A DNA stretch of 64,000 nucleotides from a bacterium (lineage in GTDB: Bacteria; Actinomycetota; Acidimicrobiia; Spongiisociales; Spongiisociaceae). Numbering within the stretch: the first letter of the stretch is position 1; each line of letters begins with the position of its first letter. A program made the position numbers and the translations under genes. Positions 1 through 15,950 of this stretch are shown in pieces. The notes below the pieces were generated by a model, which ran no database searches, was not told the origin of the DNA, and saw only the letters and a list, made by a program, of their open reading frames with translations. Location of the stretch: NCBI GenBank assembly GCA_028821265.1, contig JAPPGU010000036.1:78681-142680 (forward strand), written 5' to 3'.

Positions 1-1
1 C

Positions 2-607
2 TCGCGCCTGACCGCCCGCACCGCCAGCGAGGAACAGCAAACCTACATGCTGTGGCGGCGGCTCGACGCGCTATCCGCCGACAAACAGACCCGCCGCCTC
101 CTGCTGAACCATGTTCAGACCATTGACACGACCAGGAACATCGGCGAACTCGAACACGCTTACAACTATGTAACCGACCAGATCGAACATGCCGGGTTGG
201 ACCGTTCCGAAGCGGCGGAGCTGCAAGGGAACCTGGACACGCTGGTGAACAGCAAACAGAAAGGCCGGAATCTGGCCGAGCTGATCGTGCTGGTCATGCT
301 GGCGTTCCTGGTGGCGGGTATGGCCGTGTTCGCCCGCACCGAGACACAGGCGTGGCCCGCGCTGGTGAACGATGTGCTGTCGATGCTCTTGGCGTCAGCG
401 GTCACGTTCATGACCGTTCACCTGTTCGACCGACGCTCCGAACGTGACCTCCCCCTCATCACCGACGCCGGGAAGGTCATGTTCCGAACCGTCAAGACAG
501 ACGCGAAGCGCAACCCCAGGGTGGAACAAACCACCACGGTCGGTATCGGGTTCGCCGTCATCGGAATCTACGTATGGCTGATGGCGGTCAAATGGCTGCC
601 CCTCTGA
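2..607 (+). CDS. Hypothetical multi-pass membrane protein, probably 5'-truncated by the window edge
   Basis: Frame is open from base 2 through the ORF-track ATG at 47 to TGA 607; three hydrophobic segments (LIVLVMLAFLVAGMAVF, VLSMLLASAVTFMTV, VGIGFAVIGIYVWLMAV). No family recognised. Confidence 0.6.
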   Translation, partial: SRLTARTASEEQQTYMLWRRLDALSADKQTRRLLLNHVQTIDTTRNIGELEHAYNYVTDQIEHAGLDRSEAAELQGNLDTLVNSKQKGRNLAELIVLVMLAFLVAGMAVFARTETQAWPALVNDVLSMLLASAVTFMTVHLFDRRSERDLPLITDAGKVMFRTVKTDAKRNPRVEQTTTVGIGFAVIGIYVWLMAVKWLPL

Positions 608-1178
608 CCAGTCGGTCACGCTGAGCGGGTCGGACAGTCCGCCGACGATCAGGCCGCCGCGGTGTGTCGGTTTGGCAGCCATTCGCCTAGCTCCGCGTCC
701 GGTCCCCGCTGTTCGGCCAAGTGCGCAACCAGGACGACCTGTCCCAGGGGGCCGGCAGACGACCGTTCCGTCCTGGGTCGTTTCCCAGCGGTCCCGTTCC
801 GGCTGTGTGGCGTCGCCCAGGGCGGGAAACTCCACAACGGCACTTAAGGTGGTGGCCGTGTTCGGTGGACTCAGGCTTAAGCCGTTCCACGGGACGGGTC
901 GGCGGGCCGCTAACCCTCCCCTGCGGGTGCTACTCGTCGGCGGGTTCCCGACGACGCGGCACCAGCCTTGATAAACGCGTTGTCTGCCTATGGTCCCAAC
1001 TGGCGAGCCTCTTAGCCCTGTTCATTTGAACCCGTCCGTCGTCCCCGATGAACCGCTCTGGGCTGTTTTCGGCAGCACCCGAGGCTCCGACCTCTGACAT
1101 GAGCAAACCATCCACAGAAGCCAGCACGCTGGTCGCCGCCGACGATCTGGGACGTCGGTAATGGCGAGTATCCCCTAG

Positions 1179-1252
1179 TGGCCCCGACGGGATTCGAACC
1201 CGCGTTTCTGGCTTGAAAGGCCAGCGTCCTAGGCCGGCTGGACGACGGGGCC
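1179..1252 (-). tRNA. tRNA-Glu (anticodon UUC), CCA not encoded
   Basis: Minus strand reads GGCCCCG...CGGGGCC-A acceptor stem, anticodon arm CTGGC-CTTTCAA-GCCAG, T-arm GCGGG-TTCGAAT-CCCGT; followed by CTA rather than CCA. Confidence 0.97.
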
Positions 1253-1339
1253 TCTGGCTCCCGATCCTACGCGCTCCGCGCTGCGAGAACCGTCGATCAA
1301 CGTTGGGAAAGTTGCTCGGGGACCGGAGGCTAGTGGAGA

Positions 1340-2110
1340 TCAGCCCTGTTCGGATAGAGCGGCGGCGAGCTCGTCCGTACTGAGCGACTCCTTGCGGACC
1401 CGCAGGTCGAGATAGATGACCGTTCCTAGTGCGGCGGTCAACGGGATCGACAGCAGGCTGGCGACCTGCTGCACGAGGTAACCGGTCATACCACCGCTCA
1501 CTCCCAGGACGGAAGAGAGGATGAGTGCGATCACAGCCGACACGACCCCGATGAAGATGACCATGAGGACGATGACGAGCAAGCCGGCGCCGAAGACCCG
1601 CCAGCGCTCGCCCGCCACCAGGCGCCACGACCGCTTGATGCTCTCCATCGGACCGATGCCTTCGATGATCAGGGCCTCCCAGACCACCGCGAGCGACACG
1701 AGAACGAAGATCCCGGGGATGATCAGAAGCACGAATCCGATGGCCATCAAAACCCCGGCCACGATCGTCGCCGCGATGATCGCGATGATCCTCCGGATTC
1801 CGGCGCTCATCGCGTTCCGCCAGTCGGACGGGACATCTGCATACGCTCCGGCAGCCACGAGGACGGCAGCCACGCCCGCCACCATCGAACCGACGACGCC
1901 CACGTAATACCCGAGCCAACCGATGGGAGACGTGCACGTCGTAATGCCGCCCGAGTCCACGCTGCAGCCCCCGACCAGGCTGACGAGGAAGGGGATGAAC
2001 ACGAGCATCAACACGATGGCGAACATCGGGCCGAAGCGGCGCCGGTAGACGGTGAAGGTGGCGTCGACGATTTCGCCGACACCCAGCGGACGCAGTTGCA
2101 GTTGAGCCAT
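1340..2110 (-). CDS. Integral membrane protein (actinobacterial LRPLxxGEIxD N-terminal type)
   Basis: 256 aa, about 6 TM helices, N-terminal LRPLGVGEIVDATF, SIKRSWRLV and C-terminal YLDLRVRKE motifs typical of this membrane family. Confidence 0.85.
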   Translation of the reverse strand: MAQLQLRPLGVGEIVDATFTVYRRRFGPMFAIVLMLVFIPFLVSLVGGCSVDSGGITTCTSPIGWLGYYVGVVGSMVAGVAAVLVAAGAYADVPSDWRNAMSAGIRRIIAIIAATIVAGVLMAIGFVLLIIPGIFVLVSLAVVWEALIIEGIGPMESIKRSWRLVAGERWRVFGAGLLVIVLMVIFIGVVSAVIALILSSVLGVSGGMTGYLVQQVASLLSIPLTAALGTVIYLDLRVRKESLSTDELAAALSEQG

Positions 2111-2116
2111 GCGCCC

Positions 2117-2122
2117 AGCCTA
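2117..2122 (-). promoter_or_regulatory. -10 box (TAGGCT) of a probable leaderless promoter
   Basis: TAnnnT hexamer 6 nt upstream of ATG 2110 with no Shine-Dalgarno between. Confidence 0.55.
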
Positions 2123-2340
2123 CCGGACGGCCACAACGCTGTCCATGGTCAAGCCCTTTGCCTGCCCTCAGGAAGTACCAGACGATGCCAAGCTGCGGCG
2201 TCGCTGCTCTGCCAGAACCGCGTTACGGTCGTGGCGCCGGGGGCGGTGGGGGTTCGGCGACCAGTCCCAACCGCATGAGGTCGGGAGCTACCCGACCAGT
2301 CCGACGGGACACCCTCTCATGCTTCCATCCAGCCCCGTCC

Positions 2341-2349
2341 TGCTAGGCT
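2341..2349 (+). promoter_or_regulatory. Extended -10 box (TGC-TAGGCT) for the P450 fusion gene
   Basis: TGn-TAnnnT 33 nt upstream of ATG 2383; GGAGGGG purine run lies between them. Confidence 0.45.
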
Positions 2350-2382
2350 TTCAATGGTTGGGTAACGGAGGGGACCGGACGG

Positions 2383-4410
2383 ATGACTCTCACCGCAGAC
2401 AGGGCGGTCACTCAGAAGCTCAGCCTGCTGGATGAACTGATTCTCACACTACTCAACGACGAGAGTGGCTACTTCCGGCAGGTTCCAGGGTGGGATTTGA
2501 GTTGTGCCGTCATCGGCGCCGTGCTGGGAGAGCTGTCCCTCCTGTCTCGCATCGACACCGATATGGACTCTTTGATCCTTCTGGATCGAAATGAAACGGG
2601 CGACCCTGCGCTCGATCCCATCCTCGAGAAGATCGCCTCGGAGCCGGTTCAACGAGATGCCCAGTACTGGATCGAACGGCTCGCCCCGCGCGCAGACTCG
2701 ATTGTCGACTTAACCCTTGACCGGCTGGTCGACCTGGAGATCCTCCGACACCACGACGGCGACTTCTGGTCGCTGGCGCCGGGGCTTTGGAAGCAGGACG
2801 AGTACGCCAAACCCGGCGAAGGCACTGCCGCGGACTACGTCAAGACGCGTATCAGCAGGGCGATCTTCGCAAATGAGATTCCGGACCCCAGAGACATCAT
2901 CATAATCTGCCTTATCAATACATGTGACGTCCTACGCTTTATTTTCGAACTCGATGAGGAGTCGGAAAGGCGTGTCGAGTTCATCTGCAAGATGGATTTG
3001 ATAGGCAGGTCCATCGCCGCGGCGGTTAGCCATAACCTGGCCGGGTCTTTGTACAGGCCCTCCGCCTTCGCGAAGCCGATTCCAACTGTCTCGCTTCGTC
3101 ATCTGCTGCGCAGCCGGCACGCTCGCGGAGGCAACATTCCCGCGTTCTTCGCGGAGCTCGCGAAGGAATACGGGCCTGTGTTTCAGATCCGTCCGCCCTT
3201 TGCCAACCCGATCATCTTTCTGGCGGGACCCGAGATGAACCACTGGGCACATCGACATGGGCGCATGTATCTGCGGGCCCGAGACTATCTGGAGGACTTC
3301 GAGAAGTTGTACGGAGGATCGGGGATATTGCCTACCTTGGACGGCGCCGATCATTTCCGGTATCGCAAGTCCATGCAGCCTGCCTATTCGCGCGCCAGGC
3401 TGGAGGCTCGACTGGATGAGGTCTACTCCAACGCCCGCAAGTACATGGCGGATTGGTCTGTAGGAGAGGAACTTCCCGGCAAGACGATGTGCAGGCGCCT
3501 GGTCAACGCGACACTGTCACCGCTGTCCGTCAGTGTCGACACCCAGGACCTCGTAGATGATCTGCACAAGTTCAAGGAACGGGCCCTCCAGACTCATGTC
3601 GTCAGGAACCTGCCCAAGTTCATGCTGCGCACCCCTGGAATGAAGCGGCGGGCAAAGCGGATCGGAGAGGTGGTGGAACGAGTTCAGAATGTCCACACGC
3701 CCGCCCAGCGGGCTGGGTGCCCTCGGGATCTTGCCGATGACCTGCTGAGCATGCACACGAGTGATCGGCAGTTCCTCCCCGAGTCGAACCTGCCGTTCGT
3801 GCTCTCGGCGCCGCTGATCGCAAGCATGTACGTGGGTGATCAGCTTGGATTCATCATCTACGCGATGCTGTCACAGCCCGAGTTCTACGAGAAGATCCGC
3901 GACGAGGCCGATGCCCTGTTCGCTAACCGGAACCCGGATCGTGACGAGATCACAGGACCGGGGATCGACGTCACCCGCCGGTTCATCATGGAGTGCATGC
4001 GGCTCTACCCGATCGTGCCGGCATCGTATCGAAACGTGATGAACACCTGCGCGGTCGACGGATACGAGTTGCCGCAGGGGGCTCGGGTCCTGATCGCCCA
4101 GACCGCCACACACTTCATGGAGGACGTCTTCCCCGATCCCTTCTCGTTCGACATCGACCGCTACCTGCCCCCGCGCAAGGAGCATCTGGGGCCGTCATAT
4201 GCGCCGTACGGTCTGGGTACCCACACCTGTCTGGGATCCCGCTGGACGTCATTGCACCTTGCGATCCATGTGCTGATCCTCGTGCATCATTTCACCCTCG
4301 AGATCGCTCCCGCCAACTACAAGCTGAAGATCAGCGCGTTCCCGTCGGCGTCGGTGAACAAGAAGCTGAAGTTTGTCGTCACCGAGCGGAGGCGCGAACT
4401 GCCCGTCTAA
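2383..4410 (+). CDS. Cytochrome P450 with N-terminal GPP34 (GOLPH3/Vps74-like) domain
   Basis: 675 aa. About aa 12-220 match the GPP34 pattern (LSLLDELILTLLNDESG, GAVLGELSLLSRI, TGDPALDPIL, LDRLVDLEIL). C-terminal ~440 aa are P450: EYGPVFQIR, ExxR (ECMR), PFSFDIDRY, heme-thiolate motif YGLGTHTCLG. Confidence 0.9.
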   Translation: MTLTADRAVTQKLSLLDELILTLLNDESGYFRQVPGWDLSCAVIGAVLGELSLLSRIDTDMDSLILLDRNETGDPALDPILEKIASEPVQRDAQYWIERLAPRADSIVDLTLDRLVDLEILRHHDGDFWSLAPGLWKQDEYAKPGEGTAADYVKTRISRAIFANEIPDPRDIIIICLINTCDVLRFIFELDEESERRVEFICKMDLIGRSIAAAVSHNLAGSLYRPSAFAKPIPTVSLRHLLRSRHARGGNIPAFFAELAKEYGPVFQIRPPFANPIIFLAGPEMNHWAHRHGRMYLRARDYLEDFEKLYGGSGILPTLDGADHFRYRKSMQPAYSRARLEARLDEVYSNARKYMADWSVGEELPGKTMCRRLVNATLSPLSVSVDTQDLVDDLHKFKERALQTHVVRNLPKFMLRTPGMKRRAKRIGEVVERVQNVHTPAQRAGCPRDLADDLLSMHTSDRQFLPESNLPFVLSAPLIASMYVGDQLGFIIYAMLSQPEFYEKIRDEADALFANRNPDRDEITGPGIDVTRRFIMECMRLYPIVPASYRNVMNTCAVDGYELPQGARVLIAQTATHFMEDVFPDPFSFDIDRYLPPRKEHLGPSYAPYGLGTHTCLGSRWTSLHLAIHVLILVHHFTLEIAPANYKLKISAFPSASVNKKLKFVVTERRRELPV

Positions 4411-4433
4411 GGGCGGGCCCGTCGGCTTCGGTG

Positions 4434-5483
4434 CTAGCGGGTCTCCTGATCGGCCGGGTCGGGATAGAACTGGGCGCAATAGCGCCGGAATGGCATGATC
4501 TCGCCGTCGGAGCGACAGAGGCGCGGGCGGGACCGGTATTGCTTGCGGCTCCAGATGATCTCATCCTGCTGGACATCCCGGTACTGCTGGGACGAGATGA
4601 ACCGGTTCATGATTGGGGCTCGCCACTTCACCGGTAGGAACCCCAGGCCCGCGATCCACCGCCCCGGCTTGCGTATCTCCCGCACCTGCGAAACCAGCGA
4701 CAGGTCGATGAGCGAGCCGTCGACAGGCGTCGCCAGCACCCACAGGCGCAGATCCATCCCGATCGAACGCTCGCGGATCTGCACGAACGAGTAGCCCAAT
4801 CCGTAGATCCGGGTGCGGGCGGCCACGTCGAAGGTAAGGGTGATGATCCCCGCAGTCGTCCGGGTGCGCCTGAAGTCGAAGTCGCTCTCCAGGAGCGGCC
4901 CGTCCACGGACACCCGCCCTACGCGGTCCACGCTGTCGTAGCCGTGGACGTAGCGCAGGTGGCCCACGTCGACCGAGTTCTCCGTCGTCTCTTGGGGATG
5001 GCCGGGAAACCGGAGGGTCCTGATCTTGAGACCGGTCCAGCCGGCCTGATCCGGTTCATCCTCTGGCAGATTCCATTGCGGCGCCCGTCCCCTGATCCCC
5101 CACCAGGCGAAGATCAGGCCCGCGATCTCCTGCGTCTCGAAGACGCGTAACCTCGCGGTGGTGGGCGGCGGCGAATAGGGGGTGGCCACGCACTGGCCGG
5201 TGGCGTCGAACTCGTAGCCATGGAACGGGCAGACCAGCCGCCCCTCACAGATGCGACCTCCTGCGGTCGGTCCCAGATCGGCGCCCAGATGCGGGCAGTA
5301 GGCGCCGGCGACGCACACGGTGCCGTTCTCGTCGCTCCAGGCGACGATGTTCTCTCCCATCCATGTCTTTTCGATGATCCCGGCTTCCAGCAGTGCCCTA
5401 CGGCTCGTGACGAAGTACCAGCCCTCGGGAAAGGGAGAAGGCAGCGGGGCATTCTCGAGCACCACCCTACGCCGGGTAGACAT
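4434..5483 (-). CDS. Rieske non-heme iron oxygenase, KshA / cholesterol 7-desaturase (Neverland, DAF-36)-like
   Basis: Rieske ligands CPHLG and CPFHG; mononuclear Fe motif ENSVDVGHLRYVH; C-terminal QDEIIWSRKQY...DGEIMPFRRYCAQFY resembling sterol-acting Rieske enzymes. Confidence 0.88.
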   Translation of the reverse strand: MSTRRRVVLENAPLPSPFPEGWYFVTSRRALLEAGIIEKTWMGENIVAWSDENGTVCVAGAYCPHLGADLGPTAGGRICEGRLVCPFHGYEFDATGQCVATPYSPPPTTARLRVFETQEIAGLIFAWWGIRGRAPQWNLPEDEPDQAGWTGLKIRTLRFPGHPQETTENSVDVGHLRYVHGYDSVDRVGRVSVDGPLLESDFDFRRTRTTAGIITLTFDVAARTRIYGLGYSFVQIRERSIGMDLRLWVLATPVDGSLIDLSLVSQVREIRKPGRWIAGLGFLPVKWRAPIMNRFISSQQYRDVQQDEIIWSRKQYRSRPRLCRSDGEIMPFRRYCAQFYPDPADQETR

Positions 5484-5746
5484 CGCCGACCTTCCTAACC
5501 CGGAACCTCATCATGGGTCCGCAACCGTCACGCATAGGGCCTCCGGAACTGCTGTACACGACCCGGTCCGGCATACCCTAGCCCTGATTACTCGTGTTCT
5601 CGGCACGCCGATGGGACTCTTCGTCGGGCGATCCGTCGTGACTGCTGGGAGCATCGGCGGACCCGGCTTCGGGTTGTTACGGGACCATGGCATCATCAGC
5701 GCGGGCTTCAACAGGCCTTCAAGCAGCGCGAGGACCGGAGCGCCGG

Positions 5747-6169
5747 ATGACCGATTGGAAGAACGTGAACGACTGGAATGCCACGATCATCGAGGAGTTC
5801 CGCGCCAACGACGGCCAGGTGGGTGGAATGTTCGAAGGGAGGACGCTGCTGCTCCTTCACCACACGGGCGCCCGTACGGGTATCCGACGGGTCACACCGC
5901 TCGCGTACCAGAACCTGGCGGACGGCTACGCCGTCTTCGCATCCAAGGCCGGGGCGGACACCAACCCCGACTGGTACCACAACGTGGTGGCCAATCCCAG
6001 GACAGAGGTCGAGGTCGGGACCAGGACGATCCAGGTCCGAGCCCGGGTCGCGACGGGGGAGGAGAGGGACCAGATCTGGAGCAGGCAGAAGCAGGACTAT
6101 CCGCAGTTCGCTGAGTACGAGTCCAAGACATCGCGGGTCATCCCGGTAATCGTGCTCGAACGCGCCTGA
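5747..6169 (+). CDS. F420H2-dependent (deazaflavin-dependent nitroreductase, Ddn-like) oxidoreductase
   Basis: IIEEFRANDGQVGG, LLLHHTGARTG, ASKAGADTNPDWYHN, RVIPVIVLE; start moved to ATG 5747 behind GGAG. Confidence 0.92.
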   Translation: MTDWKNVNDWNATIIEEFRANDGQVGGMFEGRTLLLLHHTGARTGIRRVTPLAYQNLADGYAVFASKAGADTNPDWYHNVVANPRTEVEVGTRTIQVRARVATGEERDQIWSRQKQDYPQFAEYESKTSRVIPVIVLERA

Positions 6170-6239
6170 GCGCGTCAGCCGGGCCGGGTAGCTGGACGGC
6201 AGGCGGCTCGGACCGGCCCGATCTGGCAAACTCGGTCGG

Positions 6240-7499
6240 GTGAACATCGAGCCGGAGACTCCGCTGCGGTCCCTCGACGTGGGATTTGCCCGCGGCCAGT
6301 TCCCCGCCTTCTCCGACGCCCGTCTCGCCGGGTGGGCCCACTTCGAGAACGCGGGCGGATCCTACGCCTGCCGCCAGGTGATCGACCGGCTGACCGGCTT
6401 CTACCGCCGCACCAAGGTACAGCCCGATCATGCCTTCCCGCTCTCGGTCGAGGCCACCGAGGCGATGGAGCACTCCTACCGGCGAATGGCGGGCTGGATG
6501 GGCGTGGGGGTGGATGAGATCCACTTCGGGCCGTCCACGTCGCAGAACACCTACGTCCTGGCTCGGGCGTTCCGCTCGATGTGGCGCGATGGGGATGAGA
6601 TCGTCGCATCCACGCAGGATCACGAGGCCAACGCCGGGGTTTGGCGGCGTTTGGAGGCCACGGGGATCGTGGTGCGGGAGTGGCGGGTAGATCCGGAGAA
6701 GGGAACCCTGGACCTGGCCGATCTCGACGGGTTGATGACCGAGCGCACCAGGTTGGTCGCCTTTCCCCACGCCTCCAACGTGGTGGCCGCCATCAACCCG
6801 GTCGCCGACGTGGTGGCGAGAGCGGCGGAGGTCGGCGCCCGGGTGGTGGTCGACGGGGTGTCCTACGCACCCCACGGCCTACCCGACATCGGGGCACTGG
6901 GGGTCGATGTCTACCTCTTCTCCGCCTACAAGACATGGGGCCCGCACCAGGGGGTGATGTACGTCGGCCGCGACCTCGCCGGCCGGCTCGGGAATGAGGG
7001 CCACTACTTCGTGGCCGACCAGCCCCGCTCCAAGCTGGTGCCGGCCGGACCCGACCATGCCCAGGTGGCGGCGTGCGCAGGGGTGATCGACTACCTGGAC
7101 GACCTGTACACCCACCATGGAGGTCCCTCTGCGACCCCGGTGGCGCGAGGCCGGGCGGTCCATGACATGTTCCGGGCCCACGAGACGAACCTGGCGGACC
7201 GGCTGCTCCGCTACCTGGCCGGGCGGGATGACGTACGGGTGGCCGGCCCGACCGACGCCACCCTGCGGGCCCCCACCGTCTCGATCGTCCCGTTGCGACG
7301 CCCGGTTGCGGACGTCGCGGAGTCACTGGTGCGCAGCCGGATGATGGTCGGTGTCGGGGACTTCTATGCCCCCCGCCTCCTCGATGAGATGCGGATACCC
7401 ACGGAGCCCGGCGTGCTGAGGATGTCCTTCATCCACTACAACACCGAAGGCGAGATCGACCGGTTGATCACCGCCCTTGACCGGGCACTGGATGATTAG
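6240..7499 (+). CDS. Class V PLP-dependent enzyme, cysteine desulfurase-like subfamily lacking the catalytic Cys
   Basis: FENAGGS, DHEAN, VVDGVSYAPH, FSAYKTWGP (PLP lysine); GDFYA sits where SufS has GHHCA. TGG-CAAACT 7 nt upstream of the GTG. Confidence 0.88.
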   Translation: MNIEPETPLRSLDVGFARGQFPAFSDARLAGWAHFENAGGSYACRQVIDRLTGFYRRTKVQPDHAFPLSVEATEAMEHSYRRMAGWMGVGVDEIHFGPSTSQNTYVLARAFRSMWRDGDEIVASTQDHEANAGVWRRLEATGIVVREWRVDPEKGTLDLADLDGLMTERTRLVAFPHASNVVAAINPVADVVARAAEVGARVVVDGVSYAPHGLPDIGALGVDVYLFSAYKTWGPHQGVMYVGRDLAGRLGNEGHYFVADQPRSKLVPAGPDHAQVAACAGVIDYLDDLYTHHGGPSATPVARGRAVHDMFRAHETNLADRLLRYLAGRDDVRVAGPTDATLRAPTVSIVPLRRPVADVAESLVRSRMMVGVGDFYAPRLLDEMRIPTEPGVLRMSFIHYNTEGEIDRLITALDRALDD

Positions 7500-7502
7500 C
7501 TT

Positions 7503-8978
7503 CTAGCCGGCGCCGGCCTGCAGGTCGAGGCGTGCGATGGCTGCGGCAATCCGGGCCAGAGCCACCTCCCCGGGGAGCGCCTCCAGGCTCTCGAACAGGG
7601 GCGGTGAGATGTTGGAGCCGGTGATCGCCACCCGGATCGGCTGCCAACCCTTGCGGGGGTTGAGGCTCTCGGCGGCCAGCATGTCCCGCAAGGCCTTCTC
7701 GATGTTGGCGGCGTTCCAGTCCCCGACATTCTCGAGCATCCGCCGGGCGGCGGCCAGGGCTCGCCGGGCATCGGCTTTCATCACCTTCCGCCAGGCCTTG
7801 TCGTCATAGGTGATGTCCGAGAACAGGAAGCGCGCCGCCGGACCGATGTCGGTGGTCAGCTTGGCCCGCTCCTGGATGAGGGGCGCCAATCCGGCCAGGC
7901 GGCTCCGCTCGTCGCCGTCCAGGTCGCGCCCCAGGTCCTCCTCGACCGAGGCGACCGCCAGATCGGTGAAACGTCCCGTGGCCATCGACCGCATGTACAC
8001 GCCGTTCATCCAACCCAGCTTGTCGGGGTCGAAGACGGCCGGGCTCTTCTGGACGTCCGCCAGATCGAAGGCGGCGATCGCCTCCTCGCGGCCGAAGACC
8101 TCGTTGTCCGGATCGAGCGACCAGCCGAGCAGGCCCATGTAGTTGAACACCGCCTCCGGCAGGTACCCGCCCTCCCGGTAGGCGCGTAGCGACGTGTCGC
8201 CGTGCCGCTTCGACAGCTTCCGCCCGTCAGGGCCGAAGAGCAGCGGGAGATGGGCGTAGACGGGCCGCTCCCCGCCGAGTGCCTCGGTGATCAGGATGTG
8301 CTTGGGAGTCGAGGAGAGCAGGTCCTCCCCCCGGGCTACGTGGGTGATCCCGTAGTCGATGTCATCGACGGTCGACGCCAGGTGGTAGGTAGGGGAGCCG
8401 TCGGAGCGCAGGATCACGAAGTCGTCGATCGCGTCCGCCTCGAACCGCACCTCGCCCCGGACCACGTCCGTGAAGCCCACCGCCCGGCCCGGATTCGAGA
8501 ATCGAACCACCGCCTGCTCCCCCGCCCCGAGGCGTCGGCGGGCGGTGTCCGGGTCGCTGCCGGGGGGACGCCGGACGTAGTAACCGGGGGGTTTCTTCTC
8601 CACCCGGGCCCGGGCCCGCAACTCCTCCATCTCCTCAGTCGACCGGAAGTCGTGGTAGGCGCGTCCCATGTCGATCAACCGGTCCGCCACCTCCCGGTAA
8701 CGATCGAAGCGATCGGACTGGCGATAGGTACCGTGCGGCCCTCCCACCTCCACACCCTCGTCCCAATCCAGACCCAGCCAGCGGAACCCGGAGACGACGT
8801 CTTCTATGTAACGGTCGTCGGAGCGGGCCCGGTCGGTGTCGTCGATGCGGATGATGAAGACCCCGCCGTGGCGGCGGGCGAACAGCCAGTTGAACAAGGC
8901 CGCCCGCACGTTGCCGACATGGAGGTAGCCGGTCGGCGACGGGGCTATGCGTACCCGGACGCGGCGATCGCCGCTCAC
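7503..8978 (-). CDS. gltX: Glutamate-tRNA ligase
   Basis: RIAPSPTGYLHVGN (HIGH), RIDDTD, KLSKRHG (KMSKS). Confidence 0.97.
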   Translation of the reverse strand: MSGDRRVRVRIAPSPTGYLHVGNVRAALFNWLFARRHGGVFIIRIDDTDRARSDDRYIEDVVSGFRWLGLDWDEGVEVGGPHGTYRQSDRFDRYREVADRLIDMGRAYHDFRSTEEMEELRARARVEKKPPGYYVRRPPGSDPDTARRRLGAGEQAVVRFSNPGRAVGFTDVVRGEVRFEADAIDDFVILRSDGSPTYHLASTVDDIDYGITHVARGEDLLSSTPKHILITEALGGERPVYAHLPLLFGPDGRKLSKRHGDTSLRAYREGGYLPEAVFNYMGLLGWSLDPDNEVFGREEAIAAFDLADVQKSPAVFDPDKLGWMNGVYMRSMATGRFTDLAVASVEEDLGRDLDGDERSRLAGLAPLIQERAKLTTDIGPAARFLFSDITYDDKAWRKVMKADARRALAAARRMLENVGDWNAANIEKALRDMLAAESLNPRKGWQPIRVAITGSNISPPLFESLEALPGEVALARIAAAIARLDLQAGAG

Positions 8979-9736
8979 TCGGATACCACCGGATTGGTGA
9001 GGGCGCCCACTCCCTCGAGCGATACTTCCACTACGTCGCCGCTCGTGACGGGCCCGACGCCCGGAGGTGTACCGGTGAGGATCACGTCACCGGGCAGGAG
9101 GGTCATCACGTAGGTCACGAAGGAGATCAGTTCAGCCACCCCGAAGATCATGTCATTGATCGAGGTCCCCTGCCGCAAGACGCCGTTCACGCTGCATTCG
9201 AGGGAGAAGTCCTCCAAGGGATCGTATTCGGTCTCGATGGCCGGCCCGAGCGGGCAGAACGAGTCGAAGCTCTTGGCCCGGGCCGGCTGGCGCTCCTCCC
9301 GGAGAAGATCCTCGGCTGTGACGTCGTTACCGGCGGTGTAGCCGAGCACCACCGAGGAGGCGTCCTCGACCGCCACCCTTCGGGCCACCTTGCCGATGAC
9401 CACGGCCAGGGATGCTCCGTGGTTGACCTCGCCGGACAGGGTGGGCAGCACGATCGCCTGGCCCGGGCCGATGACCGCCGTGGAGGGCTTCATGAACAGG
9501 CTCGGCCTTTCCGGTAGCGGGCTGCCGGCCTCGTCCGCGCCGGAGGCGTAGTTGGCGGTGACGCCTATCACCTTGGTCGGGAACACCGGCGACAGGAGTC
9601 GGGCCTCGCGGAAGTCGACCACGACCTCCGTTGGTTGCCACGCCACGAACGGAGTCCCGTCATGGATGCGGATCCCCTCCGGCTCGACGGCGCCGTAACG
9701 GATGCCCTCAGGAGTCTGCATGCGGACGATCTTCAC
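8975..9736 (-). CDS. Fumarylacetoacetate hydrolase family protein
   Basis: FMKPSTAVIGPG, AKSFDSFCPLGP, MTLLPGDVILTGTP; 4 nt overlap with gltX as in other Actinobacteria. Confidence 0.93.
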   Translation of the reverse strand: MKIVRMQTPEGIRYGAVEPEGIRIHDGTPFVAWQPTEVVVDFREARLLSPVFPTKVIGVTANYASGADEAGSPLPERPSLFMKPSTAVIGPGQAIVLPTLSGEVNHGASLAVVIGKVARRVAVEDASSVVLGYTAGNDVTAEDLLREERQPARAKSFDSFCPLGPAIETEYDPLEDFSLECSVNGVLRQGTSINDMIFGVAELISFVTYVMTLLPGDVILTGTPPGVGPVTSGDVVEVSLEGVGALTNPVVSE

Positions 9737-10137
9737 GGGCGTACGCTCCCTAGTGCTAGCGCATGCGGCGGTCGAGGCCTTAGGCGGAGGTTTTTTCGCG
9801 TTCTCGGGGTGACGGGGTCGGATCTGTCACAGGCTCGCGCCATGTTGGGGATCACCAAATACCCGGCGGCTCCGAGCTCCGACGTCAGCCCGGCCGCCCG
9901 AGGGGTTATCGAACATCGAGAGCGGGCCCCGAGGCCCGGCCCGGCGGAGCGCGCTCTCATCCCAGGAAAGGTGGCGGTGGGGGAGGGCCCGGCGGTGCCG
10001 CCGCACGAGGCCAGTTTTTTGGCTCCACTGGTCGGCGAGCCTGGAGAGAGATCAGACGGTGCCGAGCCGGCGGCCCTCATGACGCGGTCCGGCCGGCTCC
10101 GGACGGCATGAACAACCTGACACCCTCGTCCGGCCGG

Positions 10138-10653
10138 TCAGGCGACCAGGGAAGGGTCAGCCCGGAGACGGGCTCGTATCCGGCGGGGCTCGTCCATGAG
10201 AAGATCGGCCGGAACCGACCCGAGCGCCGAGCGTCCCGGCCAGGGATCGTGCGCCAACTCGTCCAGCCAGCGCTCTCTCACCTCGGCGAGCCCTGCCGGG
10301 GCCCCGCCCGTCCGGGCATAGCCATCGTGCAACCCCACCAGAGACAGCGCAACCTCCACGTCCTGGCGAGTAGGCCCCCGGCGAGCATGGGATGCCCGGG
10401 CGCCTACCAACGCGGAAAGCAAGCTCTCCAGATCCCTGGGCCTCCGGCCCCGATCGAACGAGGCCGCTCTGATCATCTGTAGCCCCCAGCCGGTGTCGGG
10501 GCCCGGCCGCCCGAACGACCCTCCGGATGGTGTCTCGGCGGGAGAAGTGATCTCGCCGGGGCGGGTCGGGCTCCAGCGTCGCTCCGGGGCCCGGTCGAGG
10601 TCTTCGGCGGGTCGCTCCGTAGAGCGCAGGCGGATGTTCGGTTGCCTGCCCAT
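10138..10653 (-). CDS. Hypothetical protein
   Basis: 171 aa ORF with GGAGG upstream, co-oriented between ilvE and the FAH gene; no motif recognised. Confidence 0.65.
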   Translation of the reverse strand: MGRQPNIRLRSTERPAEDLDRAPERRWSPTRPGEITSPAETPSGGSFGRPGPDTGWGLQMIRAASFDRGRRPRDLESLLSALVGARASHARRGPTRQDVEVALSLVGLHDGYARTGGAPAGLAEVRERWLDELAHDPWPGRSALGSVPADLLMDEPRRIRARLRADPSLVA

Positions 10654-10717
10654 CAGATGACCTCCGTCGGGACTTGCATCGTCCCTCGGCGCATCCCGAA
10701 CCGCCTACGGTCGACCA

Positions 10718-11629
10718 CTAGATGTAGTCGAGCCAGTCGGTGTATTCATCCAGCTTGCCGGTGTAGGCGTCGGCGTAGATCTCCTGCGCCCGCCTGGTTA
10801 CCGGGCCGGGACGGCCCGAACCGACCGTACGGTTGTCGACCTCGCGTACCGGTGTCACCTCGGCCGCGGTCCCCGTCATGAACAGCTCGTCGCAGTAGTA
10901 CAGGTCGGAGCGGTGGATCACCTTCTCCACCACCTCGTACCCGTCGTCGCGGAGGAGCGTCATCACCGAGTTGCGGGTGATGCCGTCGAGGCACCCGGCC
11001 GACAGCGGCGGCGTGTAGATGACGCCGTCGCGGATCACGAACAGGTTCTCGCCCGAGCCCTCGGAGATCGAGCCCTCCGAATTGAGCATCAAGGCCTCGT
11101 CGTAGCCGTCCGTTACCGCCTCGCGCTTGGCGAGGATCGAGTTGATGTAGGTCCCGGTCGCCTTGGCGTTCGGGAACGCATCATGGGAGAAGCGACGCCA
11201 CGAGGAGACCTTGACCCGTATGCCGTTGAGGATGCCCTCCTCGCCGAGATAGGCGCCCCACTGCCAGGTAATGATCGCCACCTGCACTTTGGCGTTGCGG
11301 GGATCCAGACCGAGCGCGCCGAGGCCGAGGAAGACGATCGGGCGGATGTAGGCGGATGAGAACTCGTTGGCCCGGACTACCTCCTTGGCAGCCTCGACCA
11401 TCTCGTCCACCGAGTACCCGAGATCCATGCGGTACGACTTGGCGGACCGGGCCAGACGTCTCATGTGGTCGGTAAGCCGGAAACCGGCCGTACCGCCCAC
11501 TGCTTCGTAGGCCCGGATGCCTTCGAAGACACCCGTGCCGTAGTGCAATGCGTGGGTCAGGACATGGACGGTGGCATCCTCGAAGTCAACGATCCGACCA
11601 TCCATCCATATGTATCTTGCCGTATCCAT
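10718..11629 (-). CDS. ilvE: Branched-chain amino acid aminotransferase
   Basis: THALHYGTGVFEGIRAY, AKATGTY, EGSGENLF, LDGITR, GTAAEVTPV. Start placed at ATG 11629, 7 nt after TATCAT. Confidence 0.96.
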   Translation of the reverse strand: MDTARYIWMDGRIVDFEDATVHVLTHALHYGTGVFEGIRAYEAVGGTAGFRLTDHMRRLARSAKSYRMDLGYSVDEMVEAAKEVVRANEFSSAYIRPIVFLGLGALGLDPRNAKVQVAIITWQWGAYLGEEGILNGIRVKVSSWRRFSHDAFPNAKATGTYINSILAKREAVTDGYDEALMLNSEGSISEGSGENLFVIRDGVIYTPPLSAGCLDGITRNSVMTLLRDDGYEVVEKVIHRSDLYYCDELFMTGTAAEVTPVREVDNRTVGSGRPGPVTRRAQEIYADAYTGKLDEYTDWLDYI

Positions 11630-11764
11630 GACCACCATGATAGAACCCGCGCAGACCGAGTAACCCGCATCTGCCCGGTGGTTCCGGCGGCCGGACCGGA
11701 CCGGCCGGAGTCCGGACGCTGCCCCGCGCGGTATCCTGCTGGCTGGTCCTGATGCAATGCGTTC

Positions 11765-12487
11765 GTGAGTAGCCTGCTCTCACCCGATATCTGGGTGTCC
11801 CTGGTGGCCCTGACGGCCCTCGAGATCGTGCTGGGCGTGGACAACCTGGTGTTCATCTCGCTGATGGCCAACAAGCTGCCTCCCGCGTCTCGGGACCGGG
11901 TGTGGAAAGTCGGGCTGGCGATGGCAGCTGCTATGCGGGTGGTGCTCCTGTTCGCCATCAACTGGGTGATCGGCCTTACCGCGCCGCTGTTCTCCGTCTT
12001 CAACCACAGCGTCTCCGGGCGGGACCTGATCCTCCTGGGCGGCGGCGCGTTCCTGCTCGGCAAGGCCGTGATCGAGATCCACGAGCAGCTCTATCCGGGA
12101 TCGCGCCACGACGGTAGGGCCGAACGGACCGCCGCCACCTTCGCAGGTGTGCTGGGCCAGATCGCGTTGCTGGACATGGTCTTCAGCCTGGACTCGGTGA
12201 TAACCGCCGTGGGCATGGCCGACCGGATCGGGGTCATGATCGCGGCCGTGCTCATCGCGGTCGGCGTGATGATGTGGCTCTCGAGCCCGGTCATGCGGAT
12301 CGTCAACGAGCACCCGACCATCCGGATGCTGGCGCTGGCCTTCCTCCTCCTGATCGGGGTCTCTCTCGTCGCCGAGGGCGGTGGCGCCCACCTCCCCAAG
12401 GGCTACATCTACTCCGCTATGGGCTTCGCCGTGCTGGTGGAGATGCTGAACATGCGCATGCGGCGCAACCAGACCATCCGTGAGTGA
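11765..12487 (+). CDS. TerC family membrane protein
   Basis: LEIVLGVDNLVFI, DMVFSLDSVITAVGM, PKGYIYSAMGF. Confidence 0.95.
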   Translation: MSSLLSPDIWVSLVALTALEIVLGVDNLVFISLMANKLPPASRDRVWKVGLAMAAAMRVVLLFAINWVIGLTAPLFSVFNHSVSGRDLILLGGGAFLLGKAVIEIHEQLYPGSRHDGRAERTAATFAGVLGQIALLDMVFSLDSVITAVGMADRIGVMIAAVLIAVGVMMWLSSPVMRIVNEHPTIRMLALAFLLLIGVSLVAEGGGAHLPKGYIYSAMGFAVLVEMLNMRMRRNQTIRE

Positions 12488-12496
12488 TCGGGGTCA

Positions 12497-12946
12497 ATGG
12501 CCAGGGTCCTAGCGTCGTGGTTCGGGTGCGGGTTCATCCCGCGCCGGCTCCGGGGGGCTGACGAGGGCGCCGGGACGGTGGGCGCCCTGGCCGCTCTGGT
12601 ACCGGCCCTCCTCCTCGGCCGGGCCGGATGGGCGGCTCAACTGGCCGCAGCCCTGGCGGTGTGCGCTCTCTCGGTGTGGGCGAGCGGGCACTTCGCCGAC
12701 GAGGGGGACCCGGGATGGGTCGTGATAGACGAGGCGGCCGGAACGTTCATCGCCACCATCGGGGTGTCCCTCCTTCCGGCACTGGTCGGCTTCGTGGTGT
12801 TCCGGGTCGCCGACATCACCAAGCGGTTCCCGCTCGTGCAGAGGGCCGAGACCCTACCGGGCGGGCTGGGGATCACCGCAGACGATGTGGTGGCGGGCTT
12901 GTGGGGCCTCGGCGCGGCCTGGATCGTTCAGGGCCTCACGGGTTGA
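12497..12946 (+). CDS. pgpA: Phosphatidylglycerophosphatase A
   Basis: GTVGAL, DPGWVVIDEAAG, FRVADITK, GGLGITADDVVAG. Confidence 0.92.
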   Translation: MARVLASWFGCGFIPRRLRGADEGAGTVGALAALVPALLLGRAGWAAQLAAALAVCALSVWASGHFADEGDPGWVVIDEAAGTFIATIGVSLLPALVGFVVFRVADITKRFPLVQRAETLPGGLGITADDVVAGLWGLGAAWIVQGLTG

Positions 12947-13020
12947 CGGTGAGGGACCCGACGCAACGAGGGACTAGCTAGCGGCATTATTAGCCGGAAT
13001 CCCTCCCTTGGGCGGAGCGG

Positions 13021-14469
13021 TCAGAGTCCGGCTCGCTCGGTGATGAGGGTTCCGGCCAGTTTCGGGTCGGCCTTTCCGCGGGTATTGCGCATCACCTGGC
13101 CCACGAAGAACCCGACCAGCTTGCGCTCGCCATCCTTGAGGCGGGCGAACTCGTCAGGATTCGCCGCGATCAACTCGTCCACCACCGACTCCAGCAAGCC
13201 CGTGTCGGATATCTGCAGCAGATCGCGGCCCGCAGCCACTTCCGCCGGAGAGCCCTCCCCTGCGATCACTCCGGCCAGCACCTCGCGGGCGGCCGAGCCG
13301 GACAGGGTCCCCTGCCGGATCATGCCCAGCAACTCTGCCAGCGACGACCCGGTCAGAGACGACCCTCCCACCGACGGGATTCCGGCCTTCCGTAGGGAGG
13401 CCACCACCTCACCTGTCGCCCAGTTGGCGGCCTGAGGAGCACCGGCCCCGGCTTCCACGGCATCCTCGAACAGTTGCGCCAGGCCCGCCTCCGCTCCCAC
13501 CAGGTTGGCCGCCTGGGCGGCATCGATGCCCATCTCCTCGTAACGCACCCGCCGGACGCTCGGCAGTTCCGGTAACAGGGCCGCCATCCCGTCTTCCCAA
13601 TCACGGTCGAGTTCCATCGGCACCAGATCGGGATCGGGGAAGTAGCGGTAGTCCGAGCTGCCCTCCTTGATCCGCCCTCCCCTGGTGACGCCGGCCTCCT
13701 CGTCCCAATGGCGGGTCTCCATGACGATCCTCTGCCCGCTCGACAGGCGAGCGGTCTGGCGTTCTATCTCGTACGAGACGGCCCGCTCCAGGGAGCGGAA
13801 CGAGTTCATGTTCTTGATCTCCACCTTCGTGCCGAGTGGAGCCCGGGGTCCCGCACGCACCGAGACGTTGGCGTCGAAGCGGATCGACCCCTCCTCCAGC
13901 CGGGCGTCGGACACGCCAAGAGCCTCCACCAGCAACCTCAGCTCCTGCGCGTAGGCCCTGGCCTGCGCGGCGGACCTGATGTCGGGACGGGTCACGATCT
14001 CGACCAGCGGCACGCCGGAACGGTTGAAGTCGAGCAACGAGTACTCGGCCGCGCTGATCCTGCCGTCGCCACCCCGGTGGGTGCTCTTGCCGGTGTCCTC
14101 CTCCTGATGGACCCGCTCGATCCGGATCCGACCCGGATGGTCGCCGCCCACCTCGAGGTAGCCGTCCACGCAGACCGGCAGGTCGAACTGGGAGATCTGG
14201 TAGTTCTTCGGCAGGTCGGCGTAGAAGTAGTTCTTGCGGTGGAACACCGGGCGGCGGGTCACCGAGCAGTTCAGTGCCAGGCCTATCTGCATGATCCGGT
14301 TGATCGCCTCGCGGTTGGGCACCGGCAACGCGCCCGGCAACCCCAGGCAGACCGGGCAGATGTTGGTGTTGGGCTCGGCGTCGAACCGGGCCGGGCAACC
14401 GCAGAACATCTTCGACGCCGTGGACAGCTCGACGTGGGTCTCGAGGCCGATGACCGCCTCCCAGGTCAC
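13021..14469 (-). CDS. gatB: Asp/Glu-tRNA amidotransferase subunit B
   Basis: IGLETHVEL, CPVCLGLPGALP, RKNYFYADLPKNYQISQ, DYRYFPDPDL; start GTG 14469 overlaps gatA stop. Confidence 0.97.
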   Translation of the reverse strand: MTWEAVIGLETHVELSTASKMFCGCPARFDAEPNTNICPVCLGLPGALPVPNREAINRIMQIGLALNCSVTRRPVFHRKNYFYADLPKNYQISQFDLPVCVDGYLEVGGDHPGRIRIERVHQEEDTGKSTHRGGDGRISAAEYSLLDFNRSGVPLVEIVTRPDIRSAAQARAYAQELRLLVEALGVSDARLEEGSIRFDANVSVRAGPRAPLGTKVEIKNMNSFRSLERAVSYEIERQTARLSSGQRIVMETRHWDEEAGVTRGGRIKEGSSDYRYFPDPDLVPMELDRDWEDGMAALLPELPSVRRVRYEEMGIDAAQAANLVGAEAGLAQLFEDAVEAGAGAPQAANWATGEVVASLRKAGIPSVGGSSLTGSSLAELLGMIRQGTLSGSAAREVLAGVIAGEGSPAEVAAGRDLLQISDTGLLESVVDELIAANPDEFARLKDGERKLVGFFVGQVMRNTRGKADPKLAGTLITERAGL

Positions 14470-15950
14470 CGGACCCCGCCTCTCAGCCCGTATGACGGGT
14501 CGAACGGAACGGTCGTGTCGAAGCCGGCGAGGGATTCCACGGCCGCGGCCACCTGGAACATGACCGCCTCCTCCAAGGCCGGCGCCATCACCTGGAACCC
14601 GATGGGCAGATCGTGGCGGTCCAGGCCGACCGGGACGCTGATGGCCGGATGCCCGGCCAGATTGGACGGGATGGTGAAGACATCGCTCACGTACATCGAC
14701 AGCGGGTCCTCGGTCCGGTCGCCCAGCGGGAAGGCGGTGGTGGCGCTGGTGGGCGAGACCAGCACGTCGCACTGCCGGTAGGCGCGCGCAAAGTCCTCGC
14801 GGATCAGGGTGCGCACCTTCTGGGCCTGGCCGTAGAACGCCTCGTGGTAGCCGGCCGAGAGGGCGAAGGTGCCCAGCAGCACCCGGCGGGTCACCTCGGG
14901 GCCGAACCCGTCGGCGCGGGAGCGGGACATCATCTGCTCGGTGGTAGCGCCGTCCACCCGCAGCCCGTACCGGACCCCGTCGAAGCGGGCCAGGTTGGCG
15001 GAGCACTCGGCCGGTGCGATCAGGTAATAGGCGGAAAGGCCCTGCTCCGTGGAGGGGAGATCGACCTCCAGGGTGACAGCCCCGGCCCCCTCCATGGCCG
15101 CCAGCGCACGGTCGAAGGCCGCCTCCACATCCGGCTCCACCGCATCGGCGCCACCTAGCCGGCGCGCCACACCCACGCGGACCCCGTCCAGGCCCCCGCC
15201 GAGCCGGGCACCTGACGGCTCGATCCCGCCCGGATACGAGGTGGAGTCGAGCGGATCGTGGCCGGAGATGGCGTCGAGCAGGAGGGCGGCATCCTCAACG
15301 CGGTGGGCAATGGGACCGATCTGGTCGAGCGAGGAGGCGAAGGCGATCAGCCCGTAGCGGCTGACCGCTCCGTACGTGGGCTTGGCACCGACCACTCCGC
15401 ACAACGAGGCGGGTTGGCGGATCGAACCGCCCGTATCGGAACCCAGGCCGCCCAAGGCCATTCCGGCCGCAACCGCCGCTGCGCTCCCGCCCGACGAACC
15501 GCCGGGGACCCGGTCGGTGTTCCAGGGGTTACGGGTGGGCCCGAAGGCGGAGTTCTCCGTGGAAGACCCCATGGCGAACTCGTCGAGGTTGGTCTTGCCC
15601 GCGATCAGCGCGCCGGCATCCCGGAGGCGCCGGATTGCTGTGGCATCGTACGGGGGGACGTAGCCGGACAGGATCCTCGAACCCGCCGTGGTCTCCATGT
15701 GCCGGGTGGTCATGTTGTCCTTGACGGCGATCGGGATACCGTGGAGCGGTCCGCGATCACTCCCGGCCGCCAACTCCTCGTCAGCCCGGGCGGCGGCTTC
15801 CATCAGGCCGTCCGAATCGAGGGTCAGGTAGGCGTGGAGTTGGGCCTCGACCATCGAGGTGCGTTGCAGGACCTGTTCGGCCAGCCCGACCGAGGTGACC
15901 GATCCGTCCCGGAGGGCGCGGGCCGCCCCCACGATCGTGGTGAACGCCAC
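14466..15950 (-). CDS. gatA: Asp/Glu-tRNA amidotransferase subunit A
   Basis: GKTNLDEFAMGSSTE, GGSSGGS, GSDTGGSIRQP, SANLARFDGVRYG. Confidence 0.97.
   Translation of the reverse strand: MAFTTIVGAARALRDGSVTSVGLAEQVLQRTSMVEAQLHAYLTLDSDGLMEAAARADEELAAGSDRGPLHGIPIAVKDNMTTRHMETTAGSRILSGYVPPYDATAIRRLRDAGALIAGKTNLDEFAMGSSTENSAFGPTRNPWNTDRVPGGSSGGSAAAVAAGMALGGLGSDTGGSIRQPASLCGVVGAKPTYGAVSRYGLIAFASSLDQIGPIAHRVEDAALLLDAISGHDPLDSTSYPGGIEPSGARLGGGLDGVRVGVARRLGGADAVEPDVEAAFDRALAAMEGAGAVTLEVDLPSTEQGLSAYYLIAPAECSANLARFDGVRYGLRVDGATTEQMMSRSRADGFGPEVTRRVLLGTFALSAGYHEAFYGQAQKVRTLIREDFARAYRQCDVLVSPTSATTAFPLGDRTEDPLSMYVSDVFTIPSNLAGHPAISVPVGLDRHDLPIGFQVMAPALEEAVMFQVAAAVESLAGFDTTVPFDPSYGLRGGVR

Follow-up and report, generated by a model that had tools for sequence, protein, structure and literature searches.

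The stretch of 64,000 nucleotides analysed here (the window; contig JAPPGU010000036.1) is high-GC DNA from a metagenome-assembled genome (MAG) of the Acidimicrobiia, 2.6 Mb in size, 84.6% complete and labelled G000. Close to its start lie two genes that face each other tail to tail, one encoding a GPP34 domain fused to a cytochrome P450 (the fusion) and the other a Rieske non-heme-iron oxygenase of the KshA_C type (Table 1). The GPP34-P450 fusion gene and the Rieske gene are a conserved pair. On balance they are likely to belong, as its two most constant genes, to a lipid-tailoring module that has spread horizontally among sponge-associated bacteria and for which sterols are the suggested substrate. 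As the minimal core of a gene set found in many phyla, the pair probably modifies sterols derived from the host.

Relatives of the fusion occur in at least 584 stretches of a collection with one genome per species, and relatives of the Rieske protein in at least 591; for each gene the best 80 loci were analysed with 10-kb flanks, a Rieske homologue near the fusion being counted at 50% identity or more. These genomes are kin with shared ancestry, and all locus counts are descriptive and not independent trials. A Rieske homologue was present within 10 kb at 65/80 fusion loci (54/60 with full flanks) and, inversely, the fusion was present within 10 kb at 67/80 Rieske loci (57/66 with full flanks). 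The co-conservation by which the sequence-only reading had proposed to judge the pairing is thereby found in both directions. The arrangement of the pair varies between adjacent convergent, as in the window, adjacent divergent, and 1-6 kb apart with one to three module genes between. The MAG labels of the loci cover at least nine phyla, with record titles naming Acidimicrobiia, Dehalococcoidia and other Chloroflexota, Binatia, Latescibacterota, Nitrospirales, Thermodesulfobacteriota, Opitutia, Palauibacter and Alpha- and Gammaproteobacteria. Identity of the fusion to its homologues in MAGs of many phyla is 57-86%. For the best 80 relatives it is 64-86% over full length, and together with the matching sponge runs described below this would place the window's fusion in the clade of long GPP34 forms of sponge bacteria.

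The same enzymes and transporters recur around both genes. Among the 80 fusion loci a flavin adenine dinucleotide (FAD) enzyme resembling amine oxidases was found at 49, an MMPL/RND (resistance-nodulation-division) transporter with a sterol-sensing domain (SSD) at 44, a homologue of sterol methyltransferase (SMT) at 27 and an AcrB-type pump at nine. The corresponding numbers around the Rieske gene were 62 for the MMPL/RND transporter, 52 for the SMT homologue and 49 for the FAD enzyme. The methyltransferase combines CMAS (mycolic acid cyclopropane synthase) and Sterol_MT_C domains, the MMPL protein of about 830 aa carries Patched and sterol-sensing domains, and the remaining conserved neighbours are the enzyme of flavin amine-oxidase fold and a major facilitator superfamily (MFS) transporter accompanied by an LppX/LprAFG-type lipoprotein. 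A cyclase together with an epoxidase was found within 10 kb of the fusion at 3/187 loci, and two of these three were without any other companion gene.

The fusion and the Rieske gene in the window are an insertion of about 3.1 kb between core genes, because the flanking genes are contiguous without the pair in the complete genome of a sister genus (G012). There, the homologue of the left-flank open reading frame (ORF; L210 8735-9043) lies about 500 bp from a homologue, with 67% identity, of the F420H2-dependent reductase gene that follows the pair in the window, and beyond it come a cysteine-desulfurase-like gene, gltX and the next three genes, all in window order. The sequence-only reading had counted the F420 reductase as a member of the unit. 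The F420 gene was near the fusion at only 2/80 loci and near the Rieske gene at 2/80, all from the window's own genus, and since the sister genus has it at the empty site it is ancestral flank and stands outside the module. The GC content is 59.7% in the fusion (76% at third codon positions, GC3), 65.8% in the Rieske gene and 69% in the flanking cysD and gltX (GC3 88-89%). The cysteine-desulfurase-like gene of the sister genome is itself in two pieces with an in-frame TGA (G012:C1:791033-792275; L207/L208/L210), which could be a frameshift, a pseudogene or recoding.

The two partners differ in ancestry. Trees were built from loci in which the fusion and the Rieske gene each reach at least 90% coverage and contain no stops (139, then 119 after repeats of one isolate were removed, plus the window). 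The distances of one gene correlate with those of the other (Mantel r 0.47, 0/999 permutations). The fusion of the genus groups with other Acidimicrobiia and Actinomycetota (SH-aLRT 97-100), its median identity being 70.2% to other Acidimicrobiia versus 64.3% to Chloroflexota. The Rieske protein of the genus nests within a clade of Dehalococcoidia (SH-aLRT 95), with median identities of 71.4% to Chloroflexota (maximum 78.0%) versus 67.8% to other Acidimicrobiia. In approximately unbiased (AU) tests, made on 35 of the 120 rows, monophyly of the Actinomycetota Rieske proteins was rejected (p-AU 0.012), as was the Rieske-type grouping forced on the fusion (p-AU 3e-34). The pair is chimeric, consisting of an Acidimicrobiia-type fusion and a Dehalococcoidia-type Rieske gene. 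Other Acidimicrobiia have the gene order fusion, RND transporter, FAD enzyme, Rieske gene; this genus has the fusion and the Rieske gene only, 23 bp apart. That partners of different origin stand side by side argues that the pairing itself was selected, and their recruitment from separate donors gives uncommon genetic grounds for thinking that they work together.

Further genes of the module are found elsewhere in the window's genome. Two SMT homologues lie on other contigs, and the copy on contig C62 is of the module type, sharing 71% identity with the SMT adjoining the fusion in locus L019 and 43% with the genome's other copy. The start of contig C12 repeats the gene order of L019, with the N-terminus of the FAD oxidoreductase (cut by the contig end), the MFS transporter gene and the LppX-like gene; an orthologue of the SSD-RND transporter was not found in this genome (best match 30%). 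Of the compact unit that had been proposed from the sequence, the pair of oxygenases stands, and self-containment does not, with further module genes on C62 and C12. On the complete chromosome of a congener (G007) the genes occupy widely separated positions, 0.57 Mb for the SMT, 0.99 Mb for the FAD oxidoreductase and 3.26 Mb for the pair, and another congener (G011, 95% complete) is without the fusion, Rieske, SMT and FAD oxidoreductase genes all together; the system is therefore dispersed in this genus, yet present or absent as a set. In a third (G008; L003/L014/L046) the FAD oxidoreductase gene is split over two frames at G008:C2:431580-432892, which may be decay of part of the system.

No squalene or oxidosqualene cyclase was found in the window's genome at its 84.6% completeness, which suggests a substrate from outside the cell. 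Among the 12 genomes of the genus, ten of them at least 93% complete, a cyclase was found in one only (G004), and nine of the 11 cyclase-free genomes carry SMT, fusion and Rieske genes together, a distribution that fits the earlier idea of a host-derived substrate. Sterol_MT_C was found in 11/12 genus genomes; in G004 it is merely a 46-aa scrap. The fusion of G004 forms part of a tight co-directional run (L211, G004:C1:44000-62000; 7189-15186, minus strand) with genes for an SSD-RND transporter, a squalene epoxidase and a cyclase (Table 1), the last scoring 705.8 bits on the 2,3-oxidosqualene cyclase model (under the curated cut-off of 851) and 281.3 bits on that of hopene cyclase. These congener genes and the neighbourhoods with SMT homologue and SSD-RND transporter agree with the earlier proposal of sterol-type tailoring rather than catabolism.

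Several observations weigh against a dedicated sterol-modifying pair. Coupling is not obligatory, 15/80 fusion loci being without the Rieske gene (about nine of them cut or short contigs) and 13/80 Rieske loci without the fusion. Within the genus, G004 and G022 have the fusion and no Rieske gene, and in G008 an intact fusion stands next to what is left of the Rieske gene (residues 116-349), the FAD oxidoreductase gene being frameshifted. The absence of a cyclase rests mainly on the congeners because the window's own genome is incomplete. The Actinomycetota group of the AU test on the Rieske proteins was named once a first tree had been seen. The alignment of the Rieske protein with KshA covers residues ~5-178 and ~302-343 only and leaves the substrate-pocket region unaligned. 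In P450s the usual I-helix motif for oxygen activation is (A/G)Gx(D/E)T(T/S), with an acid-alcohol pair. The fusion family has A-S-x-Y-(L/V)-G-D, in which Y or V occupies the threonine position and the acid-Thr pair is absent (compare 'ASYDTT' in CYP725A4 and 'AGHETT' in CYP184A1); because this conserved threonine is absent, the fusion P450 may work otherwise than as an ordinary monooxygenase. The RND transporter shows weak similarity to HpnN (hopanoid) and BstA (sterol) alike. On NCBIfam the module SMT stays below the cut-offs of the only models it matches, which are generic or for cyclopropane-fatty-acid methyltransferases, and it is 43% identical to the genome's other SMT, so that the substrate may be a non-sterol lipid.

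That the pair and the wider module act on a non-sterol lipid, be it a hopanoid or other triterpenoid, a carotenoid-like polyene or unsaturated acyl chains of the cell's own envelope, is considered improbable. It would account for the CMAS and cyclopropane fatty-acid synthase matches of the methyltransferase, for an FAD enzyme of amine-oxidase/phytoene-desaturase-like fold and for a transporter that resembles HpnN about as weakly as BstA. The combination of an LppX/LprG-type lipoprotein with an MFS transporter is reminiscent of mycobacterial envelope-lipid export. Against this, the methyltransferase scores well above the cut-off on Sterol_MT_C (58-60 versus 21.7 bits), the transporter has sterol-sensing and Patched domains, and G004 adds a squalene epoxidase and a cyclase that fits the oxidosqualene cyclase model much more closely than the hopene cyclase model. 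Among solved structures the Rieske protein has a steroid hydroxylase as its nearest relative, and CYP51 sterol demethylases are the top Foldseek matches of the P450 model, that of Methylococcus first, a weak lead at TM 0.73-0.75 and 20% identity. The AlphaFold2 model of the whole fusion is moderate (pLDDT 69.5, pTM 0.61).

The fusion protein also bears on a published alternative, in which GPP34-P450 ('GPP34_L') is a secreted, eukaryote-like effector that binds phosphatidylinositol 4-phosphate (PI4P) and blocks phagosome maturation, the Rieske neighbour being incidental. Such a role was proposed for the long GPP34 forms, found only in sponge symbionts (PMC11706023), and the DNA of the window occurs in sponge metagenome runs. 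A search of the PDB with the single GPP34 domain sequence gave no match, and its profile reaches GOLPH3 and Vps74 weakly (E 5e-5). The PI4P pocket of GOLPH3 consists of W81, R90, R171 and R174 (Wood et al. 2009, PMC2806290). The equivalent of W81 is kept as W37, which is invariant in the fusion, and the three arginines are replaced (R90 by I/V44, R171 by D/E105 and R174 by V/I108) in a weak profile alignment that is uncertain around a 10-residue gap near R171/R174. A simple hydropathy scan, with no dedicated signal-peptide tool run, found no N-terminal hydrophobic stretch. The P450 is complete, its heme-thiolate loop PYGLGTHxCLG (C616) and ExxR motif (E537/R540) being invariant in 24 aligned fusions of several phyla with a mean column identity of 76%, and this argues for catalysis. 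Rows with stops in translation were dropped from the alignments of this analysis, namely L031 and L037 from A1 and L035 from A3. The replaced arginines, the lack of a hydrophobic N-terminus and the company of lipid enzymes and exporters, linked reciprocally across phyla and joined by squalene epoxidase and cyclase in G004, weaken the effector proposal, and the word 'sterol' is absent from the available text of PMC11706023. An effector role is regarded as quite unlikely.

Other observations on the fusion concern its relatives and its contacts. ESM Atlas neighbours of the pair are generic P450 and Rieske clusters only, and the predicted complex of the Rieske protein with the GPP34 domain scored 0.01, which gives no support for a contact and does not speak against one. 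The window's genome further has a short GPP34 gene that stands alone (contig C16:42292-42903, plus strand; 39% identity to the N-terminal domain of the fusion), and nearly all searched genomes of the genus and family have one as well. Tandem or near-tandem paralogues of the fusion (two copies no more than 10 kb apart; 63-71% identity to the window protein) were seen at L049, L053, L057, L068, L080, L083 and L119, and also at L020 and L022.

The pair could also be functionally independent passengers of one mobile accessory patch, linked by co-transfer only. Phylum labels cluster in both trees, with 12 and 11 label changes (minimum 8, about 41 when shuffled), and much of the co-occurrence might hence be inherited from few transfers. 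Kin are not independent counts, and some genomes keep one gene without the other. Linkage has nevertheless outlasted many rearrangements of order and spacing, partners of different ancestry ended up 23 bp apart in this genus, and module genes dispersed over the chromosome are missing together in G011. Independent passengers are accordingly thought very unlikely.

The Rieske oxygenase has intact cofactor ligands, with Rieske ligands C63/H65/C85/H88 and iron ligands H175/H180/D307 invariant in 13 aligned proteins and aligning with the KshA motifs. In KshA the mononuclear iron ligands are His181/His186/Asp304 (PMC4064121). Of the solved structures KshA comes nearest (profile E 2e-31, versus 1.4e-21 for SxtT and 1.6e-13 for DdmC). 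The window's protein resembles KshA (PDB 4QDC, 2ZYL) in its Rieske and KshA_C domains, its His-His-Asp iron ligands and a conserved C-terminal tail, and differs from it in having only about 30% identity over the aligned ends, no adjoining KshB and no catabolic cluster; orthology with the characterised KshA including the substrate pocket was not borne out. Many uncharacterised KshA_C proteins of about 340 aa (31-42% identity) are closer to it than KshA, 427 representative clusters being found at E 1e-30 or lower where KshA reaches 1.5e-22 in the PDB, a much smaller set whose E-values are not directly comparable; look-ups of the clusters yielded no informative names. A tblastn search of plasmids with the Rieske protein matched only 'Rieske 2Fe-2S domain-containing protein' at less than 34% identity. 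Identity with SdmA was rejected, the NCBIfam equivalog NF052579 giving 27.5 bits against a cut-off of 600 and matching the Rieske domain only. The KshA_C-type catalytic domain is presumably common to Neverland and DAF-36, cholesterol 7-desaturases, and ESM Atlas neighbours of the Rieske protein (bacterial clusters) are automatically named 'cholesterol 7-desaturase', which is a lead only.

A second fusion type exists in the Rieske family. P0154 is a 645-aa KshA_C-type Rieske oxygenase, 41% identical to that of the window, with cluster members on 88 contigs titled Acidimicrobiia and a 295-residue N-terminal extension without Pfam match. The possibility that this extension makes it a GPP34-Rieske fusion was rejected, hhalign showing no similarity to the GPP34 profile.

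This is the only KshA_C gene in the whole 2.6-Mb MAG, and neither a reductase nor a steroid-catabolic gene was found in the conserved neighbourhoods of the pair. That the pair begins steroid catabolism for carbon and energy, with a KshA-like ring hydroxylase and a side-chain-oxidising P450, would suit the closeness to KshA and the fact that actinobacterial steroid degraders combine KshA with P450s, but it is most improbable with a single KshA_C gene and no KshB beside it, with methyltransferase and exporters instead of catabolic genes among the annotated and conserved neighbours (the genome was not searched for kstD/hsa), and with the small genomes of the genus (2.3-3.7 Mb).

The features of the locus are listed in Table 1. 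ORF calls and Pfam confirmed the three ORFs of the sequence-only reading with their positions and families, and likewise the tail-to-tail order, in which the gap is exact from the stop positions, and the divergence of the F420 gene from the Rieske gene. Its statement that no ferredoxin, KshB-type reductase or steroid-catabolic gene lies nearby holds for the annotated long ORFs of 1-9113, the others being a cysteine-desulfurase-like protein, gltX and ORFs without family match; for the ORFs of 8975-12000 the analysis consisted of comparison with relatives. Consensus scans gave no terminator-like site beyond chance in the spacer between the convergent 3' ends and no promoter beyond chance in the Rieske/F420 intergenic region. 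The arginine-rich 335-aa ORF P0004 (930-1937, minus strand) overlaps the upstream flank ORF on the same strand in another frame and looks like a high-GC shadow frame.

Table 1. Features of the locus in the window (window positions) and of the GPP34-P450 run in congener G004 (positions in L211).
Feature	Position	Strand	Remarks
Upstream flank ORF, left edge of insertion	1340..2110	-	256 aa, no Pfam family
GPP34-P450 fusion gene ('GPP34_L' type)	2383..4410	+	675 aa, ORF without stops
GPP34 domain of fusion	~2425-3027 (residues 15-215)	+	Pfam PF05719, 100.8 bits
P450 domain of fusion	~3103-4365 (residues 241-661)	+	Pfam PF00067, 128.1 bits
Codon of heme ligand Cys616	4228-4230	+	
Spacer between convergent 3' ends of fusion and Rieske gene	4411..4433		23 bp; fusion TAA ends at 4410, Rieske stop starts at 4434
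KshA_C-type Rieske non-heme-iron oxygenase gene	4434..5483	-	349 aa; Pfam Rieske 58.3 bits, KshA_C 80.2 bits
Divergent intergenic region, Rieske gene / F420 gene	5484..5686		203 bp
F420H2-dependent quinone reductase / DDN-family gene	5687..6169	+	160 aa; PF04075 (F420H2_quin_red) 126.1 bits, TIGR00026 105.6 bits
G004 oxidosqualene-type cyclase	L211 7189-9132	-	
G004 squalene epoxidase	L211 9137-10597	-	
G004 GPP34-P450	L211 10681-12705	-	53% identical to that of the window
G004 SSD-containing MMPL/RND transporter	L211 12715-15186	-	

The arrangement of the pair is no assembly artefact, because the fusion/Rieske junction is bridged by contig pieces of public 'sponge metagenome' runs from two studies (X2 piece 4140-5039; X3 piece 4134-4483) and the same arrangement is seen in independent assemblies of the genus. 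Sampled-word shares of the window's stretch in 'sponge metagenome' runs were 0.90 and 0.66 for one study, possibly the source of the window, 0.29 for another and about 0.1 for many more. Runs of three studies gave pieces of at least 90% likeness, and run X4 had almost no cover over the middle part of the fusion. RNA runs were absent among the runs listed as matching the window's stretch.

For modification of host-derived sterols by the pair, the following mechanism is proposed. The cell, in whose genome no cyclase was found, would be unable to make sterols of its own and would take them up. The N-terminal GPP34 domain would hold the P450 at the membrane or at its lipid substrate, standing, with its PI4P-binding arginines lost, at the position of the membrane anchor in eukaryotic microsomal P450s, and the P450 would oxidise the sterol. 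The KshA-like Rieske oxygenase would hydroxylate or desaturate the sterol ring system. Both oxygenases would receive electrons from reductases and ferredoxins encoded elsewhere. Candidate donors in trans in the window's genome are a Fer2-containing 351-aa ORF beside another Rieske ORF (contig C62, ~99.2 kb) and one Fer4_15 ferredoxin (contig C17, ~27.9 kb). The SMT of contig C62 and, from contig C12, the FAD oxidoreductase, MFS transporter and LppX-like lipoprotein would complete the dispersed pathway. A GPP34 domain serving oxygenases is an idea fitted by the rare GPP34-Rieske fusions reported in PMC11706023.

The 351-aa ORF and its Rieske partner make up an observation of their own at contig C62:97300-99369, where a 405-aa Rieske ORF adjoins the 351-aa ORF with its C-terminal plant-type 2Fe-2S domain in what looks like an oxygenase-reductase pair. 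Its reductase might supply the Rieske oxygenase of the window in trans as well.

The GPP34 + P450 fusion architecture was published in 2025 (Microbiome, PMC11706023), where a secreted PI4P binder was proposed and sterols go unmentioned in the available text. The window's protein shares the two-domain architecture and sponge-metagenome habitat of that GPP34_L, and is unlike it in that three of the four PI4P residues appear replaced and the gene is tied to Rieske and sterol-type genes. The sponge-symbiont SMT and sterol clusters of Brown et al. 2023 (PMC10070321) and Kelly et al. 2022 ('CSGs', PMC9531527) are similar to the present system in belonging to uncultured sponge bacteria and in holding SMT homologues and horizontally moving sterol genes; as described in the available texts, they are built around cyclase, CYP51, ERG24 and sdmA/sdmB. 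The general SMT family of these two papers includes the module SMT that adjoins the fusion in other genomes. Neither 'P450' nor 'Rieske' occurs in the main text of PMC10070321, nor 'GPP34' or 'Rieske' in the available text of PMC9531527, and an SMT preprint (10.64898/2025.12.19.695621) makes no mention of P450, Rieske, GPP34 or gene cluster. In the literature searched, no paper was found that joins GPP34-P450 to sterol genes in sponges, and the supplements of PMC11706023 and PMC10070321 may already list such neighbours. New from the window are the minimal two-gene form, the proof from the empty site that places the F420 gene in the flank, the scattered partners that are nonetheless present or absent together within the genus, the epoxidase/cyclase operon of the congener and the chimeric ancestry. 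New as well are a GPP34 domain that, judged from the weak alignment, is without three of four PI4P-binding residues and a P450 lacking the I-helix threonine.

The bacterial contribution to sponge sterols is in dispute (Brown et al. 2023, PMC10070321). Sponge sterols and fossil steranes serve as evidence for the earliest animals. Of a symbiont gene set that is very widespread, the locus represents the simplest natural form; it offers a tractable pair for work on sterols, and reading it as sterol-modifying gives a testable alternative to the published idea of a phagocytosis-blocking effector for GPP34-P450. More tentatively, and at present rather doubtful, GPP34 may be, instead of a host-directed PI4P binder, a bacterial membrane-docking or sterol-handling domain in place of the microsomal anchor of a sterol P450, which together with the KshA-like oxygenase, the divergent SMT and the exporters converts host sterols to the unusual sterols typical of sponges, modified in ring and side chain, that are returned to the holobiont. 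If so, the fact that this genus acquired its two partners independently would demonstrate selection on the enzyme pair itself, and symbionts from many phyla, not the animal alone, would shape 'sponge' sterol profiles and fossil biomarkers.

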